Source: a phage. Taken from it: a stretch of DNA of 64,000 nucleotides. The notes beneath the pieces were generated by a model. That model did no database searches, was not told the DNA's origin, and saw only the letters and a program-made list of their open reading frames with translations. This document shows, piece by piece, positions 3,582-63,924 of the stretch (position 1 is the first letter of the stretch; the number at the start of each line of letters is the position of its first letter). Made by a program: the position numbers and the translations under genes. The stretch lies in NCBI GenBank assembly GCA_014161675.1, contig GCA_014161675.1_4760.1. The stretch is one strand, 5' to 3'.

Positions 3582-3589
3582 TATAAATA
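3582..3589 (+). promoter_or_regulatory. T4-type late promoter (TATAAATA) for gene 53 / gene 5 operon
   Basis: Exact TATAAATA ~30 nt upstream of gene 53 ATG, embedded in an inverted repeat (AGCACCCT...AGGGTGCT). Confidence 0.6.
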
Positions 3590-11700: not shown

Positions 11701-11839
11701 ATTTGCAATGAGTCCACTGTTTGACCAGTCGGCGGTAACATTCTCTATGTTCCGTGAACTTGTAGATAAACGGTTGAAGGATAATATAGGGAATCCACGC
11801 GATCCGAAGAATCCGACACAGAGGAAAATTAATGGCTAA
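8753..11839 (+). CDS. 7: Baseplate wedge initiator gp7
   Basis: 1028 aa (T4 gp7 ~1032 aa), overlapping start with gene 6 stop. Confidence 0.85.
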   Translation: MIKAPSVTSLTIEKLSANQAYITWDDVGENFFYFVELAETRTRDGEIIPVDELSWVNLGYTADQNWFEDKNLFPEYYYKFRVAVAAEGFEQSKWVETEEFQTFKTNAYNFSMMREFNLANEFIKEKFTYDNREYVKFNTDLIQASLMKEDFVFSPEYANMTNISNYIVVDENFHEIQDHIEKVCTDINRTMLAEMNGVLYLFERFQPIVKVSNDKGQSWKAYKAFNDRVGNPVSRTCVYQSKTTTYVLGYDRIFYGRQASDTRWSADDVRFSDDTITFAKVGDENDLGFDVEVFGVFSRLTGDTTKYAEAMACSDDYLWVGAKDVIRRIRLKNTPVDTVQGSPTFGEKIFDPDVIRVTGNDKAVIQKMDVIDGKLLVFVTGEVKQRYQDPTKPENVVPSDDAGVYLIGSDGLSFQRVFGNTPQEREYIQHGFSNMSTNGDEVFISHYNHHFESILPDPETAEKYELGEAVKYSQEPTYLTDKKIHQTTFRASYDDLRIWELGPQAYYNEADYTWMRRNGVRVWITNDNRPLVVYPEVIYTQEVDTSGILDQNRVNREVYDKGTVTCYLNNVKFEGFKQYASGVMFHKNTGEIIGFYQFNYRVRDQVGVYWKPTNVAFVAELQNQVREVPWVPVHYDREQDPDLRPLLNKMTPDSFLLENENFRKFSEYYLQFLSDGSGTYYNKLKNLIKNKYPREKDAYEYLWSEMNKRNIYADKNKRDAVVRFFESRKSDFYSTKGVEASYKFLFKLLYNEDVEIEVESQAGLEYDIVVSSTNIDEDIVGRTIYTPTGRANVTYLEREYEGGRLRWRVTIHNLIGRFEEGQVIKSEKTAFEGMILVGVRGKELLSSSIDYINRSRSQYTMKIKSALPVSRYANDVMRFVHPVGFGFIGVTLLTMFINSGLSMKHTETIIQSLKNYKFDSGLPSVYPDRVADLDVDGNIKKDPLTGKALYLTSPLIGEEFPVPPEYDQENSELFHGLKASERRFAMSPLFDQSAVTFSMFRELVDKRLKDNIGNPRDPKNPTQRKING

Positions 11840-12827
11840 TGAAAATAGTGTGATCTATCGCTCAATCATTACTAGTAAATTCAGAACGGAAAAACTTCTG
11901 AATTTCTATAATTCTGTAGGCGATGAGGCAAATCAAATTACAATTTATGGAACGTTTGGACGTTCGGAGCCGTGGTCAGAAAACGAAAAAGAGGTGGGCT
12001 TTGCCCCACCTTATCCGACCGATTCAACGGCTGGTGTTGTTGACATGTGGACCCATATGATGGGGGCGGTTAAGATTAACAAATCACTTCTTGATGCGGT
12101 TATCCCTCGTAAAGATTGGGGTGATACCGGACAGGATAACCCGCGCACATTCTTTATCAATGACATTGTTGTTGTCAACTCAGCACCATATAACAGAACT
12201 GATGTTGGTAGCGGCTGGATGGTGTATCGCGTAACCGATGTTCCTGATCGCGGTTACTGCTCGATTTCAAGCATTGACGCTAAAGTAGAGTGTTTGAAGT
12301 TGGGCGGAAAGTGGACCCCCACTCATGAATCAATTGCGCCACCTGTAGGAAAGGGCGATTCTATTGATATGGGTGATGGGTATCGTTGGGAATATCTGTA
12401 CACAATTCCACCTGATGCGGCGATCAACCGTTGCACCAATGAACATATTGTTGTACCGTTCCCCGATGAACTGCGACAAGATCCGGCGCGTTGGGGTTAT
12501 GACAATGTGATCACCTGGTATAATGACTATAATCTGCTTTATCGGCTGAAAGTAGTAACTTTGCGTTTTCAGGCTTATATGGACTCTGCGCAATTCCCAA
12601 CTACCGCGTTAGTGGGTAATACTGGTTTCCGTCAGTTAAGCATTATCCTTAACCCATTGGAAAAGAAAGCACGCCCTAGCGATCCAGACGTTAAAGCGGT
12701 CAAAGATAAGTACCGACCGCAAGACTTAGAGCCACACTCAGGCGAAATGATCTACATGGAAAACCGACAACCTATCGTTCGGTCATTAGATCAAACAGAA
12801 CTTGTTTCTGTATTGTTTGAGTTCTAA
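11832..12827 (+). CDS. 8: Baseplate wedge protein gp8
   Basis: 331 aa (T4 gp8 ~334 aa), conserved order. Confidence 0.85.
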   Translation: MANENSVIYRSIITSKFRTEKLLNFYNSVGDEANQITIYGTFGRSEPWSENEKEVGFAPPYPTDSTAGVVDMWTHMMGAVKINKSLLDAVIPRKDWGDTGQDNPRTFFINDIVVVNSAPYNRTDVGSGWMVYRVTDVPDRGYCSISSIDAKVECLKLGGKWTPTHESIAPPVGKGDSIDMGDGYRWEYLYTIPPDAAINRCTNEHIVVPFPDELRQDPARWGYDNVITWYNDYNLLYRLKVVTLRFQAYMDSAQFPTTALVGNTGFRQLSIILNPLEKKARPSDPDVKAVKDKYRPQDLEPHSGEMIYMENRQPIVRSLDQTELVSVLFEF

Positions 12828-12840
12828 GTGTATGATTTAA

Positions 12841-12869
12841 AAGCCAATTCGAGAGAGTTGGCTTTTTCT
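12841..12869 (+). terminator. Rho-independent terminator after gene 8
   Basis: AAGCCAA-loop-TTGGCTT hairpin followed by TTTTT. Confidence 0.6.
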
Positions 12870-12879
12870 ATTTTGGGTG

Positions 12880-12907
12880 TTGACAATCTTGTCTGATAAG
12901 GTATAAT
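12880..12907 (+). promoter_or_regulatory. Sigma70-type (phage early-like) promoter
   Basis: TTGACA, 16-nt spacer, TATAAT; about 30 nt upstream of ORF 12937. Confidence 0.65.
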
Positions 12908-12936
12908 GATCACATCTAAACAACGGAGGATAAATT

Positions 12937-13194
12937 ATGGCACGTCGTAAATTTACAGATAATTGTGAAGCAATTCAGGTATCCCCTTGCGGTTGGGATG
13001 TGATCGCGAACGGTGAAAAGATCGGAGAGATCATCGATCATACTCATTCATCACTAGCCGATTACACCGATGAACTATGGGAGGGTATCAACTTCATGAA
13101 TGACACTAAACGATTCAAGACTATCGACGAAGCTATCTATTTTGTGTATAATCCAACTTTCGGTATGTGGGGTAATAGAAAATGGCACGCGTAA
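12937..13194 (+). CDS. Hypothetical protein (inserted cassette between genes 8 and 9)
   Basis: 85 aa ORF with GGAGG RBS; no T4 counterpart at this site. Confidence 0.55.
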   Translation: MARRKFTDNCEAIQVSPCGWDVIANGEKIGEIIDHTHSSLADYTDELWEGINFMNDTKRFKTIDEAIYFVYNPTFGMWGNRKWHA

Positions 13195-13514
13195 ATATTA
13201 AATTGCATTACACAATGAATAAAGCTAAGTTCCCAATGCAAAAGCATTACTATGGTCTACGTGCACAAGATCCTAAACTCTATGGTACTCATTGGTTTTG
13301 TAAACATGATAACCAATGGCACACATACGAAGAAATGCACGAGATGATGAAACAGGGTATTGAATTTAGTTATTCTAATTATGACCATCGTATAACTTGC
13401 ATTCGAAAATTGAAACGATGGATTCGTAAGAATCCGCAATTTAAAAACTTTGTGTTCTTTATGTCTCATGTTTATTTGGGGCATAGCGTTACCGTCACAG
13501 CAAAGGTTAAATAA
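13182..13514 (+). CDS. Hypothetical protein (inserted cassette)
   Basis: 110 aa ORF, overlapping start/stop with neighbours. Confidence 0.5.
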   Translation: MARVNIKLHYTMNKAKFPMQKHYYGLRAQDPKLYGTHWFCKHDNQWHTYEEMHEMMKQGIEFSYSNYDHRITCIRKLKRWIRKNPQFKNFVFFMSHVYLGHSVTVTAKVK

Positions 13515-14353
13515 TGGCACGACTTTCTAAACAAGAACAAAAATTACACGATCGGGTGATGGAGTTGATTAATTCAGATCGCCCATTGACATATGAAGAA
13601 AAAGAATTTTGCTATAATAACTATCATGGCGATGGTCTAGGCGGTTCAGGTGCATTCTTTACCCCAGAAGGGCTTGCATGGGATTTTACCATCGATGCAC
13701 ATTGCACAGGAAAAGTATTAGATCTTTGTGCTGGGATCGGTCGCTTATCTTTTTGTATGTTACATCGTTGTAAGCCAGAAAAGATCGTATGCGTCGAACT
13801 CAATCCAGAATTTGCGCGGATTGGCAAGAGACTATTACCGGAGGCAGAATGGATCACCAGCGATGTATTCGAATTTGAGTCAAACGAAAAATTCGATGTG
13901 GTGATCAGCAATCCACCTTTCGGGAAAATCAATACAACCGACACAAAGGATGTATTTGAGTACACTGGCGGTGAGTTTGAATTTAAGGTTATGACATTAG
14001 GCCAGAAGTTTGCCGATGTAGGTTATTTTATTGTTCCTTCTGGTTCCGCTGGTTTTGCTTATTCCGGCAGACCTTATTATGACGGGACCATGAAGTCTAA
14101 TAAATATCTAAAATGGAGCAAACAAACTGGTTTGGTGACTTATGCCGGATGTGGGATCGATACATCAATCTATCGCGATGAATGGCATAGTACAAACGTT
14201 TTAACAGAAGTGGTTGAGGTTCGGTATTACGAGAAAGAAGCCGTAGAAGCGCCTAAAACACGTCCTAACGAACAAATAGAAGAAAGTAAGGAGATTACCT
14301 TACCGAAACAGGAAAGCGAGTCTGGGACGCTCTCAGATTTGTTTGACATTTAA
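13514..14353 (+). CDS. Putative SAM-dependent N6-adenine DNA methyltransferase (gamma-class-like)
   Basis: Motif order FFTP (motif X), VLDLCAGIGRLS (motif I), VISNPPFG (motif IV NPPF). Confidence 0.6.
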   Translation: MARLSKQEQKLHDRVMELINSDRPLTYEEKEFCYNNYHGDGLGGSGAFFTPEGLAWDFTIDAHCTGKVLDLCAGIGRLSFCMLHRCKPEKIVCVELNPEFARIGKRLLPEAEWITSDVFEFESNEKFDVVISNPPFGKINTTDTKDVFEYTGGEFEFKVMTLGQKFADVGYFIVPSGSAGFAYSGRPYYDGTMKSNKYLKWSKQTGLVTYAGCGIDTSIYRDEWHSTNVLTEVVEVRYYEKEAVEAPKTRPNEQIEESKEITLPKQESESGTLSDLFDI

Positions 14354-14358
14354 TTATA

Positions 14359-14384
14359 AGCCGTCCTTGTGGGCGGCTTTTTTG
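14359..14384 (+). terminator. Rho-independent terminator after methyltransferase cassette
   Basis: AGCCGTCC-ttgt-GGGCGGCT hairpin followed by TTTTTT. Confidence 0.65.
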
Positions 14385-14393
14385 TATGTATTT

Positions 14394-14401
14394 TATAAAT
14401 A
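14394..14401 (+). promoter_or_regulatory. T4-type late promoter (TATAAATA) for gene 9
   Basis: Exact TATAAATA 28 nt upstream of gene 9 ATG. Confidence 0.6.
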
Positions 14402-14428
14402 ATACATCATAACATGAGGAATTAAACA

Positions 14429-15283
14429 ATGGCACAAGTTCCAAAGAAAAGAATAGACACAGGTACTGTCGGCAATCCATCGACTGGCGATATCTTATAT
14501 GATGGCGGTAATAAAATTAACGATAACTTTGATTCAATATATGACGCATTTGCTGATCAGAGGTTTAAAGACGTAGACCACGGCGTGGGAAGAATGGTTA
14601 TTCATGCAACCGGATACTATCAGAAGCATCCACGTCAAAGCTACGCGGGTTCCGCTGTTGAGATTGGGAGTCTACACGATATCGATACAACTCAAGGCGC
14701 ACTTATTGCTATTCTACCTAAAGCAAAGGTCGGCGAGGGTGTTGTATTCATAAATAGTAACGGTAGCCTTTCAACGACGACACCTCTCAATATTCGAACT
14801 CAAGCAGGTGATTCTATTAGCGGTTATTCCGGTGATGCTACAATAACACAACCATTTTCAAAAGTCACTGTTTGGTGTACTGCCGTTGAAGGTAGTCGCG
14901 TAACATGGCGATTGGGTATCGAAAGTATGTTTACCGATACAACAACGCCATTAGATAAAACAGTTAACGTAACTGGAGTAGCAACAAACGTTGCTATTGC
15001 CGCAAAAACAGAATACGTTTCCATCAAATTATTAACTACCGCTAGCAATACATCCGGTTCAAAAATGCGTTCAAGTGAAACGCTACTGATGATTGATTCT
15101 AAAGCCGGAAAAGTTTATGCGACGGAATATGCAGTTTTGCAGAAGACAGAAGATGAACTATACACGGTTCGTTATTTCATCGGTTCCGGCGATAAAGTAT
15201 ATGCAGAGTATAAGGCTACTGGCGAAAATATTCGTTTAGCAGTTAAAGCCGTAGACACTATTAAAATCGGGGTTGCTACATGA
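14429..15283 (+). CDS. 9: Baseplate wedge / long tail fibre connector gp9
   Basis: 284 aa (T4 gp9 288 aa), conserved order 9-10-11-12. Confidence 0.8.
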   Translation: MAQVPKKRIDTGTVGNPSTGDILYDGGNKINDNFDSIYDAFADQRFKDVDHGVGRMVIHATGYYQKHPRQSYAGSAVEIGSLHDIDTTQGALIAILPKAKVGEGVVFINSNGSLSTTTPLNIRTQAGDSISGYSGDATITQPFSKVTVWCTAVEGSRVTWRLGIESMFTDTTTPLDKTVNVTGVATNVAIAAKTEYVSIKLLTTASNTSGSKMRSSETLLMIDSKAGKVYATEYAVLQKTEDELYTVRYFIGSGDKVYAEYKATGENIRLAVKAVDTIKIGVAT

Positions 15284-21924: not shown

Positions 21925-22665
21925 ATGTTTAACAACACTCTTTTTGCTCGCCTTGAATCGCAAAAGGATTATGAGAATACACGACAAACAGAGATTCTTA
22001 ATCCTTATGTGAACTTTCACAAATATACAAATACTCAGACGTTAGCCGACGTTATGGTCGCCGAAGCTATTCAGATGCGAGGTGTAGAATTATATTACAT
22101 CCCTCGTGAATTTGTCAAACCAGATATGATCTTTGGTGAGGATGTTCAAAGCAAATTTACTAAAGCATGGAAATTTGCGGCGTATATTAACTCATTTGAT
22201 GGGTATGAAGGAGCGGGTAATTTCTTCTCTAGTTTCGGGTATCAAGCTAATGATGAATTAACTTTTACGGTTAACCCCAACCTATTCAAACATCAAGTAG
22301 ATGATCAAGAGCCAAAATCAGGTGACTTAATTTATATTCCGATGAGTAATGATTTATTTGAAATTAATTACGTTGAGCCATATCAGCCGTTTTTTCAGGC
22401 TGGCAAAAATGCCATGCGTAAAATTATTGCAGAGAAATTCGTGTATAGCGGTGAGGAATTGCGACCAGAATTACAACGCAATGAGGGAATTAATGTTGAT
22501 GAGTTTGCGGATCTGGATCTTGCACCGATCACTAATCTGGACGGGTTAACAGATATCAACCTAGATCAGTACAAAGAAGATAAGCAATTCAGAAGCGAAG
22601 GACAAGATTTTATTGATCCGTTTGATCCTATTAATGGCAAGGGTTCACCTTTCGCCGATTTTTGA
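21925..22665 (+). CDS. 14: Neck protein gp14
   Basis: 246 aa, conserved order 13-14-15. Confidence 0.8.
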
Positions 22666-38669: not shown

Positions 38670-38945
38670 TCAGGACATTGCCCGTTTGAATGCGTCCATT
38701 ATAACAGTGTTATTTGGCATGTCAACACGTTTTTGAACTTTATTTTTAAATTTTTTGTTGATGTGGTGTTTACGATAAACAACCTTTTCACGATTGGCGT
38801 AAGACTCTCGTGCATCTTTTACCATCAACCATGCCTTAGCCGCATCTTGTCCGCTGATCCCGCCAATCTTCTTAGCAATATCAACAAAATTAAGACCGTG
38901 GTCTTCGCGTAGCATGTAAACCATTAACGCTGTTTTCTTGTCCAT
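38670..38945 (-). CDS. Hypothetical small protein, possible helix-turn-helix
   Basis: 91 aa, basic C-terminus; segment LNFVDIAKKIGGISGQDAAKAW is HTH-like. Confidence 0.45.
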   Translation of the reverse strand: MDKKTALMVYMLREDHGLNFVDIAKKIGGISGQDAAKAWLMVKDARESYANREKVVYRKHHINKKFKNKVQKRVDMPNNTVIMDAFKRAMS

Positions 38946-39262: not shown

Positions 39263-39290
39263 ATTATAAGCCACTAAATCACACTGTCAA
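39263..39290 (-). promoter_or_regulatory. Sigma70-type promoter (minus strand) downstream of hoc terminator
   Basis: Minus-strand TTGACA, 16-nt spacer, TATAAT. Confidence 0.55.
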
Positions 39291-40817: not shown

Positions 40818-41543
40818 TTACTTGAGTGTGTGGAATTGGCTGTGTTTAGTCTCTCGCACCTTGACAGACCCATCGCGTTTGATATAATAGATCAGTGACT
40901 TGAGGGTGTCGTGTACATACGCGTGCGGGAAACGCTCTGGATACTTCTTCCAATCTGGAGTATTAACGATCCAGTCGAAAATCCACCACGGGCAGGAGTA
41001 GTAACCACGACCGCCACCGATCAAGCAAATGGTCGGACGGAAGCCAGTAAGATCGCAAAATGAATCAGTGTCATGTGCTGGGGAACGATGCTCTGCTTCG
41101 TTAGAGAAAATGTTGGCTACCGGAGATTCCACTTTAACTTCCGGTGCTTCTTCAACATCTGACTTAACTTCTTCGACCACTGGTTCAACTGCCGGAGATT
41201 CTTCTTTTGTTTCTTCAATGACGATCTCAGGTTCTTTCATTGCTTCAACCAGAGACGGATCAACTTCGTCGAATACCACTTTATCATCTGCGGTGTCTGC
41301 TGCCAGAATAAGATCGTTAATACTGGTTCCTTCTGCCGGAGTTTCTTCTTCCATTTCGGAAGCCAGTTTAGTTAATTCTGTTTCTACGAACTCGATCATG
41401 TTCTCTAGCGAGAGCGTCTTTTTGACCTTTATATCAAATTGTTTTGCGTAGTCCGCTAATTCTGTTTTAGCGGCTTTCTGTGATTCTTTGTCGTCGGACG
41501 CCGCAATAGCGCGGAGTTCTTCGAAATATTCTTTATCAAACAT
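40818..41543 (-). CDS. inh: Putative inhibitor of prohead protease (Inh-like), acidic internal protein
   Basis: 241 aa acidic protein immediately upstream of hoc on the same strand, as in T4. Confidence 0.55.
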   Translation of the reverse strand: MFDKEYFEELRAIAASDDKESQKAAKTELADYAKQFDIKVKKTLSLENMIEFVETELTKLASEMEEETPAEGTSINDLILAADTADDKVVFDEVDPSLVEAMKEPEIVIEETKEESPAVEPVVEEVKSDVEEAPEVKVESPVANIFSNEAEHRSPAHDTDSFCDLTGFRPTICLIGGGRGYYSCPWWIFDWIVNTPDWKKYPERFPHAYVHDTLKSLIYYIKRDGSVKVRETKHSQFHTLK

Positions 41544-45208: not shown

Positions 45209-45979
45209 ATGAATATTATCCGAATAAAACTACCGGAAGGTGTGCAGAGATTTAAACCATTCACGGTAAAAGATTATAGAGATTTCCTTCTGGTGTCAAC
45301 TGAAATTAAGATGAATCCAGAAGAAGAACAAACGATTCTTGATGAGCTATTAGAAGAAATATATCCAGACGTAGATCCGGCATTTCGTGAATATATTTTC
45401 CTGAATGTCTTTACTAGTTCAATTGGTAAAACTAAGATACCGCTTTGTTTTACTTGCCCGACTTGCAACAAAGAAAGAAGAATGTTGCTTAACTTACAGG
45501 TTGAAGCACTAAAACCAATCGTTCTAGAGGCCGCAGGGCTTAAAATAACTTTCCGGTATGTTAAACCATCAACCGACTATGCAAAAACGTTTCTGGATGC
45601 GATAGAGCGTGTATCTGATGGTATTAATGACTATCTATGGACTGAATTGCCGGAAGAAGTTAGAGAACAGGTTATCGATTCAATCTCATTTTCTGAATTT
45701 GAAGAAGTTGTTAAGCAGATGCACACAATCAAGATCGAACAAAAGATATCTTGTTGTGAGAGTCATGACCTGAAATACATAGGTCTTCTTCCATTATTCA
45801 AATTGTTGTTGAATCCAGATGAGTTATTCATCTTTTATCGAATAAACCATCTATTGGCAAAATCAAATTATTCTATCAGTGATCTTATGGACATGTTACC
45901 CGTCGAGAGAAACATTGCACTGACACTGGTCGAGAAAGACGTAAAAGAGGCAAACAATGCAAAGAACGGGGTTTCCTAA
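45209..45979 (+). CDS. 51: Baseplate hub assembly catalyst gp51
   Basis: 256 aa with CxxC...C pairs, conserved position. Confidence 0.75.
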   Translation: MNIIRIKLPEGVQRFKPFTVKDYRDFLLVSTEIKMNPEEEQTILDELLEEIYPDVDPAFREYIFLNVFTSSIGKTKIPLCFTCPTCNKERRMLLNLQVEALKPIVLEAAGLKITFRYVKPSTDYAKTFLDAIERVSDGINDYLWTELPEEVREQVIDSISFSEFEEVVKQMHTIKIEQKISCCESHDLKYIGLLPLFKLLLNPDELFIFYRINHLLAKSNYSISDLMDMLPVERNIALTLVEKDVKEANNAKNGVS

Positions 45980-55896: not shown

Positions 55897-56229
55897 TTAT
55901 AGTCTCCTGAATGGATCATCACGTAAATCAATATCTTTTAAGAACTCATCCCATGAATGGCGGATATTGTTCTTAATTCTCCAGATAAGAGCAGGGATTG
56001 AACGCTCTCCCATCTGGAAGTATGGATCATATGATCCGTATGCCCAATATGCTACTACAATTCCACAATCAGCGCAATAGTATTCTATTTCACTTGCTGG
56101 CGACCAAAGTCCATCAATATGATCGGTGATCTTGCTTTCGATGTTATGGCTATGACAATCAGGGCAACGGATGCAATGACCTTGTTTATCGTAATTTGAC
56201 GTTAGCGAATACTTAAACAATCTCATCAT
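55897..56229 (-). CDS. Zinc-ribbon protein
   Basis: 110 aa with CIRCPDC ... CADC (two CxxC pairs); start overlaps upstream gene stop. Confidence 0.5.
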   Translation of the reverse strand: MMRLFKYSLTSNYDKQGHCIRCPDCHSHNIESKITDHIDGLWSPASEIEYYCADCGIVVAYWAYGSYDPYFQMGERSIPALIWRIKNNIRHSWDEFLKDIDLRDDPFRRL

Positions 56230-56942
56230 AGATCCTTATTTGCTTCAAATACTGCCTTTGCGAATCCTCGCGGGGTAAGTGACCTGATAGTCTTTGTTTT
56301 CGTTCCTTTCCCGCCTAGCTTAGAATGCTGTTTACTGTACCCTTTATTAATCTGCAACGGTTTCTTTTCTGGCATTATAAAGCCTTGTCCGGTCCATAAG
56401 CAAGTCTTTTTCGGGTACATATCACGGGCGGCGATATACTCAGGAAAAGTAGGATGTTTATCATCTTCCGGCAAATAACCGCCATATTCCCACGGGTGGA
56501 ACATGTAATCAGGCTTACGCCACATGCTAGAGATAACGCTTACAGGATTCTCTATCATGTAGGGAACTCCTAGCCATTCACCCAAATAAGCGGTTATTTT
56601 AGCTGCCCTTACATCATGAACTTGAATCAATGGTCCTTGTTCTCGTTTCTTTCGTTCAAAGTGTGCAGCGCCACTAACAGCTAAATTGGTGCACGGTGGG
56701 AATGCAAAGATAATATCCGGTTTCCCCCATTCAAGGTCCATTGCTCTTTCCAGCCAATTCAAATCAATCCAGGTGTTTACATAGGTAATGTTTGGATGTT
56801 CAAATCTGGTATTATACTTTTTGTATGTGCCGTGGTCGCCATCATCAGCATTAAAGCAGATCACCTTATGACCTGCTTTAGCCCATTCTAGCCCCATTAT
56901 CCCCGATCCGTCAAAGTTACAGAATATTAATTTTTGTTTCAT
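56226..56942 (-). CDS. Compact C5-cytosine methyltransferase-like protein
   Basis: Motif I-like FCNFDGSGIMG, motif IV-like FPPC(T), motif VI-like MIENP, C-terminal RSLTPRGFAKA resembling motif IX; only 238 aa with almost no target-recognition region. Confidence 0.5.
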   Translation of the reverse strand: MKQKLIFCNFDGSGIMGLEWAKAGHKVICFNADDGDHGTYKKYNTRFEHPNITYVNTWIDLNWLERAMDLEWGKPDIIFAFPPCTNLAVSGAAHFERKKREQGPLIQVHDVRAAKITAYLGEWLGVPYMIENPVSVISSMWRKPDYMFHPWEYGGYLPEDDKHPTFPEYIAARDMYPKKTCLWTGQGFIMPEKKPLQINKGYSKQHSKLGGKGTKTKTIRSLTPRGFAKAVFEANKDL

Positions 56943-60974: not shown

Positions 60975-61003
60975 ATTATAGGGGATCACCGATCCCCTGT
61001 CAA
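60975..61003 (-). promoter_or_regulatory. Sigma70-type promoter cassette with palindromic spacer
   Basis: Minus-strand TTGACA-GGGGATCGGTGATCCCC-TATAAT. Confidence 0.65.
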
Positions 61004-61952: not shown

Positions 61953-62429
61953 TTATTTTTCTTGATGCTCGCGATCGTACTTTTCGAAATAAAATTCTAC
62001 TGGCTGGTCGTGGATTGACAGCAAGCCAAAGCGTTTAGCCGCTCGCAATCCCATATTGCGCTGAATGTACTTCTGGAAGTTCTCGCGTATACACTTACGC
62101 CAGGATTCTAAGCCCATGCAGCTTTTATAAAGATTGCATTGCACACACGCCGGATTCATGTTATCAAGTATATCATGCTCCGGTTTATGCATTCCTACAA
62201 CCTTATACTTCCACGATCCATCATCATTACGGGCAATTCGTCCATTTTCATCATAGACTACCTTTGAGCGTCGCAATACTGGTTTGATGTGGTCTGCGTG
62301 CCAGCGATCCCCTAGTTCCTCGCCACAATAGGCACAACGTCCACCATATTTCATTTTCAGGATCTGGCGTTGATCTTTCTTTGACAATTTTTTAGGTTTA
62401 GGGGCTTTCGCCCCTTCATTATCACACAT
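61953..62429 (-). CDS. HNH endonuclease (free-standing, putative homing endonuclease)
   Basis: CAYCGEEL...WHADHIKPV...NMNPACVQCNLYK (Cys pairs flanking H-x-D-H and Asn); start overlaps the ligase stop. Confidence 0.7.
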   Translation of the reverse strand: MCDNEGAKAPKPKKLSKKDQRQILKMKYGGRCAYCGEELGDRWHADHIKPVLRRSKVVYDENGRIARNDDGSWKYKVVGMHKPEHDILDNMNPACVQCNLYKSCMGLESWRKCIRENFQKYIQRNMGLRAAKRFGLLSIHDQPVEFYFEKYDREHQEK

Positions 62430-63924
62430 CGAATACCTCTTTTACTGTATTTGCAGTGGTCTTGTCGTAGCGAATACGTTTGATGATTGGGAGAAATAAA
62501 GAGAACTCCGGTTCATCTTCTTTACGTGATTTGCTGCGGATATACCCGTTGCATGTCATCTCAATGACTTTGCCAACCAGGTTATGACGGTCAGCCCATA
62601 ACATTTCTCGGTCGAGTTCATTTCGACGAACGAACGGAATTACACGTTCAGTACCATCATCACCTTTTTCGGTTGTAGTGTCGGTTAATCCCGATCCGGT
62701 GTTAGTCATCATTCGTCCGCACGCACTACGGACAGTAAAACCGCCTACCTTATTGGGGTCTTTACTATGCGGATATACGTCAACAATTTCCGCGTCGAAG
62801 TCAATCACTTCTTTAAATTTAACCTGATCTTTACTACGGCGATCTTCAAATACACCATGTAAATTTTTAAGGATAATACCTTCTAAGCCCATGTTGACAT
62901 AACGATGATATACTTCGCGAGCTTCATCGATATTGTTAACTACAGTATTTTCGATTATCTGAACACGAGGATCGTTAAGTTCTTCAACAATCTGTTTTAG
63001 TTCTTCGAATCGATCTTTATATTGCTTCGTTGCTTTCTCGTTTCCATAATACACATCACGGTCGATAACATCCCAGACAGTGTAAACAATACATTGGGCT
63101 TCTTCTTTTGGAATAGTTCCTTTAAGTGATTTGTTGAGGATACCATTTCCGGTCTGACGATCTGCAACAACGGATTCTTTCACTGCTTCCGCTACTGGCG
63201 TTAATGGCATTTCCTCTTCTTCAAATATCCATGACAGAGTACCATCATAAACGCTCTCAACGAAGTTCTGCGCTGGTGTTTGCGAAAGGGTAGGCATATA
63301 TACCAATTCGCCATCTAGAACAATTCCACGGCCTCGTAGACGCTCTAAAACCGCAAACAAATCATCAAGCCCTTGATAGGTATTACCTGAGCGGGTATAG
63401 ATTGCTAATGTTTCCCCGTCAATATCAGCCATACCACGAGCGCCATCGCTTTTAAGTTGTGCATACGCCGGATACTTGATATTAGCAATAGTCTTATCAG
63501 AACATGACGATGCAAGGTGGCACGGCTGCTGGGGGATCAGTTTCTTCCATACCTTGTTTGCAGTGGTAGCTGAACAGCCGCATTCCAGATCACGATTCAG
63601 GACCATCATTGCAACTTTAGCATCATCCTCTGACAAGCAAGTCAGAGTATCGGTAACTAGCTGTAATGCTGCATTACCAGTTACTTGACGCGTGGCAAGT
63701 TTATTTTTAAAGACCTGTAATGCACCGGATAAAGATAATACAGACGAATAGCGAGATGGTTTATCGTATTTCTTTACGCCAAACGTAACCTGTTTGCAAT
63801 ATGCCAGATAAAAGCATTCTTTCAGCGTTTCATTGCTCGCGGATTCTTTCAGAATCTTTTCTTTCAGCGATGTTTTGTCTGTTGCTGCAAGCTGATTAAT
63901 GATATTAAGAATTGACATTTTCAC
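62422..63924 (-). CDS. 30: ATP-dependent DNA ligase (gp30)
   Basis: Adenylation motif KSDGAR (T4 KADGAR); further identical blocks with T4 ligase (LVYH/M, GIANKSLKGTI..EAQC, GLEGIILKN, KFKEVIDVD). Confidence 0.9.
   Translation of the reverse strand: MKMSILNIINQLAATDKTSLKEKILKESASNETLKECFYLAYCKQVTFGVKKYDKPSRYSSVLSLSGALQVFKNKLATRQVTGNAALQLVTDTLTCLSEDDAKVAMMVLNRDLECGCSATTANKVWKKLIPQQPCHLASSCSDKTIANIKYPAYAQLKSDGARGMADIDGETLAIYTRSGNTYQGLDDLFAVLERLRGRGIVLDGELVYMPTLSQTPAQNFVESVYDGTLSWIFEEEEMPLTPVAEAVKESVVADRQTGNGILNKSLKGTIPKEEAQCIVYTVWDVIDRDVYYGNEKATKQYKDRFEELKQIVEELNDPRVQIIENTVVNNIDEAREVYHRYVNMGLEGIILKNLHGVFEDRRSKDQVKFKEVIDFDAEIVDVYPHSKDPNKVGGFTVRSACGRMMTNTGSGLTDTTTEKGDDGTERVIPFVRRNELDREMLWADRHNLVGKVIEMTCNGYIRSKSRKEDEPEFSLFLPIIKRIRYDKTTANTVKEVFDV

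Follow-up and report, generated by a model that had tools for sequence, protein, structure and literature searches.

A polymerase-like C-terminal tail suggests that a Krischvirus methyltransferase encoded between baseplate genes 8 and 9 is a replication-clamp partner

How does a small phage methyltransferase that lacks a recognizable DNA-recognition domain reach its substrate, and what is its gene doing among the baseplate genes? These questions are raised by a 64,000-nucleotide stretch of phage DNA (contig GCA_014161675.1_4760.1 of GenBank assembly GCA_014161675.1, hereafter the window), in which genes 8 and 9, only 63 bp apart in T4, are separated by 1.6 kb. A preliminary description had placed here, at positions 12841-14401, a cassette with an early promoter and three open reading frames (ORFs), and had taken the largest product, of 279 amino acids, for a gamma-class N6-adenine methyltransferase that might protect phage DNA from a host restriction system. 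The insertion between two genes adjacent in T4 was borne out by our comparison. Escherichia phage kaaroe, a Krischvirus (RB49-like), matches the region 12600-14600 at 99.4% identity; in all, 59 phage records matched, all of them Krischvirus, with the cassette whole in 58. As first described, the cassette is ordinary for RB49-like phages and already annotated, and what our analysis adds is the tail of the 279-residue protein (hereafter the MTase). The tail resembles that of the phage DNA polymerase, and many relatives carry tails of the bacterial beta-clamp-binding type, both of which are new features. Based on these features, we suggest that the MTase is probably an orphan phage DNA methyltransferase tethered to the replication clamp.

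The MTase gene (13514..14353; this and all cassette features below lie on the plus strand) ends, behind a disordered linker rich in acidic residues and proline (residues 247-269; 14252..14320), with codons for SGTLSDLFDI (14321..14350), a putative binding motif for the sliding clamp gp45. In its long form the tail peptide reads KQESESGTLSDLFDI. As the reference for the polymerase tail we used gp43 of the close relative Phi1, whose C-terminus, ...YEKVASLTDLFDI, aligns position by position with that of T4, ...YEEKASLDFLFG, and ends in ASLTDLFDI. The T4 gp43 tail mediates binding to gp45 (PMC6212786), and a peptide-clamp structure is available for RB69 (PMC3012046). The MTase tail TLSDLFDI and the gp43 tail SLTDLFDI have the same residue at 6 of 8 positions, and the other two positions are exchanges between Ser and Thr. 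When the gp43 tail was compared with the tails of 611 ORFs from 163 kb of Krischvirus DNA, the MTase tail was the top non-self match with a BLOSUM score of 32 (self-score 39), followed by the C-terminus of DNA ligase gp30 (...TVKEVFDV, 19) and the known clamp partner gp33 (12). In the six-frame translations of the same 163 kb, DLFDI occurred only at the C-termini of gp43 and the MTase.

A second known gp45 partner shows the same pattern. The gp45-binding loop of T4 ligase, EPEGLDFLFD, was first noticed because it resembles the gp43 tail, and isothermal titration calorimetry and crystallography then provided the proof (PMC6212786). The loop of the window ligase that aligns with it (EG-LDFLF in T4) is DGTLSWIFEE, and gp43 (ASLTDLFDI), this loop and the MTase (SGTLSDLFDI) have in common [ST]-L-[ST]-x-[LI]-F and, directly after it, an acidic residue. 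With its tail, its disordered linker and its match to proven gp45 partners, the MTase thus has the features of a putative clamp partner. The ligase gene lies at 62422-63924 on the minus strand, and the loop of its product at the T4 clamp-binding position is DGTLSWIFEEEE. Judging from both its loop and its C-terminus, the ligase may have two clamp-contact peptides.

The identity of the enzyme was examined through its motifs, family profiles and predicted fold. Motif X, FFTP (residues 48-51; 13655..13666), is invariant in an alignment of 27 homologues. The S-adenosylmethionine (SAM)-binding loop of motif I, VLDLCAGIGRLS (residues 68-79; 13715..13750), contains the core DLCAGIG at residues 70-76, of which LCAGIG is invariant in the same alignment. 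In the catalytic motif IV, VISNPPFG (residues 130-137; 13901..13924), Asn133, Pro134, Phe136 and Gly137 are invariant and Pro135 is conserved in at least 90% of the homologues. The preliminary description had reported these motifs in this order, and it read them correctly: with NPPF at residues 133-136, the arrangement X-I-IV is that of the gamma class. The protein scored above the Pfam cut-offs for MTS (38.5 bits, cut-off 23) and Eco57I (29.0 bits, cut-off 25.3) and matched PHROG 3820, 'DNA methyltransferase', at 1e-117. More than 50 GenBank records name the gene a methyltransferase. Its top match in PADLOC was the MADS DNA methyltransferase mad2 (4e-17), followed by several Type II methyltransferases; this library holds only models of defence systems, so its DNA methyltransferase matches are no unbiased vote for DNA. 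An AlphaFold (AF2) model with a predicted local distance difference test score (pLDDT) of 83.5 shows a Rossmann core with N-terminal helices that ends near residue 238, a disordered segment at 247-273 (pLDDT below 50) and a four-residue helix at 273-276 at the C-terminus. M.TaqI, M.BseCI and CamA align to the MTase over only about 165-175 of their 380-550 residues. Taken together, the 279-residue protein is a class I SAM-dependent amino-methyltransferase with the motif order X-I-IV.

Sequence searches of the PDB with the single MTase protein and with a profile returned generic SAM-core matches only (E about 1e-3), to which no substrate could be assigned. An alternative at this point is an RNA adenine-N6 methyltransferase, similar to METTL5/PH1948 or to Erm/KsgA, which would act on host or phage rRNA or tRNA and might tune translation or evade an RNA-targeting defence. 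We consider this alternative unlikely, and we favour DNA, probably at adenine N6, as the substrate of the MTase.

The preliminary description had also held that the enzyme differs from T4 Dam, which agrees with the presence of a separate Dam homologue, with DPPY at residue 179, elsewhere in the phage. The phage also encodes a third, C5-like methyltransferase. This 238-residue protein (56226-56942, minus strand; Phi1 ORF189; PHROG 757, 'DNA methyltransferase') has no Pfam match and contains motifs resembling those of C5-cytosine methylases, with FDGSG close to its N-terminus and also FPPC and ENP. Glucosylated methyl-cytosines for which no pathway is known are reported for one Krischvirus, SAP (2026 paper, PMC13390438), and the C5-like gene might be a candidate for this pathway.

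We then compared tails across the MTase family, using 80 viral loci and 80 loci from bacterial genomes. Of the viral loci of temperate-phage size, 29 of 36 (23 distinct tails) have Q-x-[SD]-[LI]-F within the last 14 residues of the MTase, whereas the 1812 control ORFs taken from these loci include no such end. Typical ends are SQLDLFGMAA, QLSLFDAA and QADLFGVAA. The pentapeptide QL[SD]LF is the canonical beta-clamp-binding motif of bacteria. On the contigs of temperate-phage size, T4-type replication genes were absent within 10 kb, and T4-type gp43/gp45 genes were found only in the RB43-like loci, where the MTase tails are of LF type. Tails of beta-clamp type also occur in prophages of Pseudomonas, Brucella, Rhizobium, Agrobacterium, Burkholderiales, Rhodospirillales, Planctomycetes, Chitinophaga and Streptomyces, and the Labrys tails are variants resembling the hexapeptide, such as QLVLL. 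A family profile built without the tail columns collected 332 clusters (50% identity, E <= 1e-30). Among 145 full-length representatives, 98 have a tail 8 residues long or longer. A conservative regular expression assigned a strict beta-clamp-type motif to 25 of these 98 and detected an [LIM][FW] pair close to the end in a further 27, and inspection by eye shows variants of QLxLxL type in many of the rest. The tail thus switches its type across the family and tracks the clamp that is available, a pattern that is difficult to account for if the tail does not bind clamps.

The homologues are of different kinds. Copies of about 238 residues end enterobacterial prophages, and longer copies from lytic myoviruses have a variable linker rich in acidic residues and proline, followed by a conserved terminal peptide. 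In RB43, Miro and GAP161 the MTase gene lies within the replication cluster, between 61/61.1 (primase) and 41 (helicase), and in one temperate locus (L089) it lies between genes for an MT-A70 and a C5 DNA methylase, adjoining a primase-polymerase gene. In Citrobacter, Enterobacter and related genomes (L002-L009, L021-L042), a tail-less homologue is the last prophage gene, beside chromosomal genes, in a moron-like position, and many prophage contigs of IMG/VR end 0-50 bp from the stop codon of a tail-less homologue. An MTase of RB43 type with the tail ...QNLFTFTIE is encoded on a 178-kb contig of a Flagellimonas marina assembly (L111, NZ_JBHSCL010000010.1), which is probably a coliphage-like contaminant in this Bacteroidota assembly.

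Here, we need to consider several observations that weigh against a clamp-tethered DNA methyltransferase. First, the tail in Krischvirus could stem from recombination, not selection, because the MTase gene and g43 agree exactly in their last 14 nt and the 11-mer TTGACATTTAA occurs in 163 kb only at the 3' ends of these two genes. In g43 the 11-mer doubles as the -35 box of a promoter-early stem-loop (PeSL) element, a type of sequence known to mediate recombination (PMC2839356). On this explanation the tail match would be a functionless by-product of an exchange with the 3' end of gene 43, and the MTase would be an ordinary orphan DNA methyltransferase that diffuses freely. However, both proteins also agree in the five preceding residues, [ST]L[ST]DL, for which their genes use synonymously different codons, and this points to constraint at the protein level. 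In relatives at 65-69% identity, the ends TLTDLFDI and SLSMFDI persist behind very different, unrelated linkers, and we therefore consider the tail to be maintained by selection; among close relatives, too, the linker has substitutions while the tail stays invariant. Moreover, the wider family independently gained beta-clamp motifs many times, and the ligase loop has the same GTLSxΦF pattern. A functionless by-product of recombination seems to us improbable, and a clamp-binding tail remains our preferred explanation.

Second, the match between the tails of the MTase and gp43 does not extend to all relatives. In RB43-like phages the MTase tails QNLFTFTIE and SDLFTFTIE have only the LF core in common with the local gp43 tails SLNTLFGDDW and SLNDLFGDW. 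We examined RB43, GAP161, Miro and IMG/VR loci for strict covariation of the two tails and rejected it, the agreement being limited to the LF core, with D-L-F in both proteins for Miro and FDF in locus L044. We therefore make no claim of covariation with gp43 outside Krischvirus, as it is weak in RB43-like phages. The tail is also absent in the copies from enterobacterial prophages, Flavobacteriia, Aeromonas phages and jumbo phages.

Third, the class assignment of the preliminary description stands in part. The motifs and the MTS and Eco57I matches agree with a gamma-class N6-adenine methyltransferase, but the N6_Mtase profile (PF02384), by which that description had expected the family to be recognized, reached only 16.7 bits against a cut-off of 20.4. 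In addition, the catalytic core of the MTase is followed by no separate target-recognition domain, only by the disordered linker and a tail of 8-10 residues, and how the MTase would recognize a specific DNA sequence is unexplained.

Fourth, data are available for the Krischvirus TB34, whose enzyme is 97.8% identical to the MTase. No modified nucleoside was detected in TB34 DNA by high-performance liquid chromatography/mass spectrometry (PMC13390438), and TB34 is restricted by bacteriophage exclusion (BREX) systems that read unmethylated adenine motifs (PMC11341690). These results imply that methylation is sparse, or lies off the BREX motifs, or that the gene is poorly active there, and they argue against bulk or non-specific adenine methylation. 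Non-specific hypermethylation of the Hia5 or M.EcoGII kind was considered as the activity of the MTase and is unlikely given the nucleoside analysis and the BREX sensitivity. A site-specific mark at the per-cent level is compatible with the TB34 data; the nucleoside analysis reported none although the phage has a Dam homologue too. The protective role against restriction that was proposed for the cassette sits uneasily with both results and should be regarded as tentative. The literature searched held nothing relevant on adenine methylation of RB49-like DNA, and the BASEL restriction panels include no Krischvirus. Papers on Kp15virus sought modification genes but overlooked the 279-residue MTase family.

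Finally, early transcription of the cassette is read from its promoter sequence, and DNA methylation and the clamp link in the MTase family are likewise deduced from sequence.

Two further alternatives concern what the protein does once it is made. Occupation of the clamp might be its main job, with methylation secondary or lost, so that the tail would modulate the access of polymerase, ligase or late-transcription factors to gp45 or block the partners of the host beta-clamp. The tail does look like the tails of gp43, gp33 and gp55, three proteins in competition for gp45 (PMC9690074); however, the catalytic and SAM-binding motifs are invariant in the 27 diverse homologues and kept across hundreds of clusters, which argues for a working enzyme, and we regard this alternative as very improbable. 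Least probable of all is a protein glutamine-N5 methyltransferase similar to PrmC/HemK, whose target would be release factors or a protein of the replisome to which the clamp gives access: glutamine methylases do occur among NPPF/NPPY enzymes, the kaaroe, kvi, ECD7 and 011D4 records use the name 'release factor glutamine methyltransferase', and RF_mod_PrmC (TIGR03534) is the best NCBIfam match, with 37.5 bits against a cut-off of 199.1 and over residues 64-137 only. Our analysis corrects this name, which has spread over several GenBank records.

Based on these considerations, we favour with reasonable confidence an early DNA adenine methyltransferase that is tethered to the replication clamp. 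Right after infection, transcription would start at 12880-12907 through host RNA polymerase with sigma-70, and a single mRNA would carry ORF1, ORF2 and the MTase gene, the overlap of their stop and start codons coupling their translation. Transcripts from gene 8 would be halted by the upstream hairpin, and the downstream hairpin would keep early transcripts out of gene 9, which has its own late promoter. The MTase would then consist of a compact catalytic domain, a flexible linker of 25-30 residues and the terminal SGTLSDLFDI, which would dock in the gp45 pocket used by the polymerase tail and the ligase loop. Carried on gp45 clamps that are loaded on replicating phage DNA, it would methylate adenine N6 of the new DNA. 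The relatives in temperate phages would do likewise on the host beta-clamp by means of their QL[SD]LF tails. For the family as a whole the evidence leaves us evenly divided on whether it is a widespread and so far undescribed class of DNA methyltransferases with which phages mark DNA from the replication clamp, each lineage with a peptide suiting its clamp. T4-like phages would use a gp43-like tail to reach gp45, and the temperate phages of many phyla would reach the host beta-clamp by means of QL[SD]LF.

If the tail binds gp45, the MTase would join polymerase, ligase, gp33 and gp55 in the 'tool-belt' of the T4-type clamp. Such tethering would explain how a minimal enzyme that lacks a recognition domain marks fast-replicating DNA, made at hundreds of nucleotides per second, before it is packaged. 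The roughly 330 clusters of relatives would show that phages have repeatedly coupled methylation to replication by means of borrowed clamp-binding peptides. The tail would also help to predict which of the orphan methyltransferases of phages have DNA as their substrate, and would provide short peptides that report on, or compete for, the pockets of gp45 and the beta-clamp.

The architecture of the cassette agrees with the preliminary description: all the elements that it had listed between genes 8 and 9 were found, to within 1-2 bases, and a consensus sigma-70 promoter with two strong hairpin terminators as borders makes the cassette a self-contained unit inside a late baseplate block. Upstream lies gene 8 for a baseplate wedge subunit (11832..12827; Pfam Phage-Gp8, E 8e-144; PHROG 977), and downstream lies gene 9 for the baseplate wedge and tail-fibre connector (14429..15283; Pfam T4_gp9_10_N, E 1.4e-40). 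The intrinsic terminator after gene 8, which is also the stem-loop half of a PeSL-type element, spans 12839..12870 with a 12-bp stem, a 4-nt loop and a U-run. Its hairpin (12839-12866) folds at -15.6 kcal/mol with a z-score of -4.7, and none of 200 shuffled sequences folded as well. The sigma-70 (phage early) promoter, TTGACA-16-TATAAT at 12880..12907, matches the consensus at 12 of 12 positions, and the sequence just before it is rich in T. Perfect TTGACA-N15-18-TATAAT sites number 7 in the window, where 0.13 would be expected, and the six others lie at 22089-22118, 38698-38725, 39263-39290, 40861-40888, 45273-45299 and 60975-61003. A TTGACA within the last MTase codons (14343-14348) was considered as an extra promoter and rejected, as no -10 box lies at a workable distance from it. 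The terminator that closes the cassette (14358..14384) has a 9-bp GC-rich stem followed by T6, and its hairpin (14358-14379) folds at -15.9 kcal/mol with a z-score of -4.3.

Gene 9 is preceded by TATAAATA (14394..14401), a late promoter box of T4 type 28 nt upstream of the ATG at 14429. This octamer occurs 8 times in the window against 5.7 expected, that is, not above chance, and all 8 copies are on the plus strand, which is the late-gene strand. They lie at 3582, 14394, 27134, 32727, 35336, 35898, 41571 and 45181, mostly 28-40 nt ahead of ORF starts on this strand. Despite the chance-level count, their strand and spacing fit putative T4-type late promoters.

Much of this architecture is already public, through the literature on PeSL elements, the methyltransferase names in the records and the GenBank record of GEC-3S, which annotates the same terminator, promoter, -35 and -10 boxes and second terminator. 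The genomes of RB49 and phi1 contain about 50 composite PeSL elements each (Arbiol et al. 2010, PMC2839356). A PeSL consists of a near-perfect sigma-70 promoter and an adjacent stem-loop and usually precedes orphan ORFs; a few lie inside the virion module near genes of unknown function, where they shield late genes from early read-through, and PeSLs elsewhere in RB49/phi1 act experimentally as strong promoters and terminators (PMC2839356). Five subclasses have been described, one with the stem-loop upstream of the -35 box, and sequences of PeSL type have been shown to mediate recombination in RB49/phi1-like phages (PMC2839356); PeSL cassettes are also treated in Comeau et al. 2014 (PMC4122927). 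In the cassette the hairpin lies 14 nt upstream of the -35 box, as in that subclass, and its promoter and stem-loop appear to fit the published PeSL class. The phage group, the near-perfect TTGACA-N-TATAAT, the adjacent stem-loop terminator and the non-core ORFs downstream are all as in the PeSL cassettes of RB49/phi1. In contrast, the cassette stem-loop is a terminator flanked by A/U upstream of the -35 box, whereas a typical PeSL has a polyG/polyC stem, and the 3' border of the cassette is a plain terminator, unlike in cassettes bordered by a second PeSL. At the 3' end of g43 in Phi1 (L011, 15950-15990), the last codons CTG TTT GAC ATT TAA (LFDI and stop) hold the -35 box of the next PeSL, which consists of TTGACA-16-TATAAT and then a GC stem-loop and overlaps the codons of the clamp-binding tail.

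The other two genes of the cassette precede the MTase gene. ORF1 (85 amino acids; 12937..13194; PHROG 16603) has a GGAGG ribosome-binding site at 12925-12929, ORF2 (110 amino acids; 13182..13514; PHROG 12630) overlaps ORF1 by 13 nt, and the start codon of the MTase gene overlaps the ORF2 stop codon by 1 nt. All three ORFs start with ATGGCACG (Met-Ala-Arg), at 12937, 13182 and 13514, and gene 9 starts with ATGGCACA (Met-Ala-Gln) at 14429. Neither ORF1 nor ORF2 had a match in Pfam, NCBIfam or PADLOC, and a full database search with ORF2 returned only 5 near-identical proteins. Outside Krischvirus, ORF1 homologues were found only in Vequintavirus FV3 and HMD-6 (about 71% identity), and ORF1 and ORF2 are both orphans restricted to two groups of phages. 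In FV3 (L010, JQ031132, 2510-3330) the homologues of ORF1 (71%) and ORF2 (60%) stand side by side and the MTase is absent. Since the ORF1-ORF2 pair occurs without the MTase in rV5-like phages, the cassette seems to have been assembled from at least two modules. Within ORF2, identity to GEC-3S falls to 65-87% in the patch 13199-13440 and is 97-100% on either side of it, and this mosaic pattern is indicative of exchange within the cassette. Krischvirus ORF2 exists as two alleles, at 100% and about 72% amino acid identity, within otherwise near-identical cassettes. The mosaic and the alleles suggest recombinational replacement or diversifying selection.

When the MTase is compared with known systems, the gamma-type N6-adenine DNA methyltransferases (M.TaqI, Eco57I-like enzymes, HsdM) differ from it in that it has neither a C-terminal target-recognition domain nor a specificity subunit nearby, its identity to them is 13-20%, it forms its own PHROG (3820) and it falls below the N6_Mtase cut-off. 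T4 Dam and the non-specific enzymes Hia5/Hin1523 (PMC3299994) are, as the MTase would be, orphan adenine methyltransferases encoded by phages and thought to counter restriction; unlike the MTase with its NPPF, they are alpha-type DPPY enzymes, and the Dam homologue of the phage is a separate protein. As in the T4 partners of gp45, the tail of gp43 and the LDFLF loop of ligase, the putative contact is a short hydrophobic and acidic peptide on a flexible segment (PMC6212786, PMC3012046). Unlike these partners, the MTase is known here from its sequence, and no methyltransferase is among the partners named in those two papers. More broadly, the literature searched, a limited library that is no proof of novelty, contained no clamp-binding methyltransferase of phages or bacteria. 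The closest functional parallel would be DNMT1, which the PIP-box recruits to PCNA (PMC9690074). DNMT1 is an unrelated C5-cytosine enzyme that uses another clamp and another motif and is cellular, not viral; if our proposal is true, the MTase would be a viral, prokaryotic counterpart of DNMT1-PCNA, in which a DNA methyltransferase is likewise tethered to the replication clamp and new DNA is methylated as it is made.

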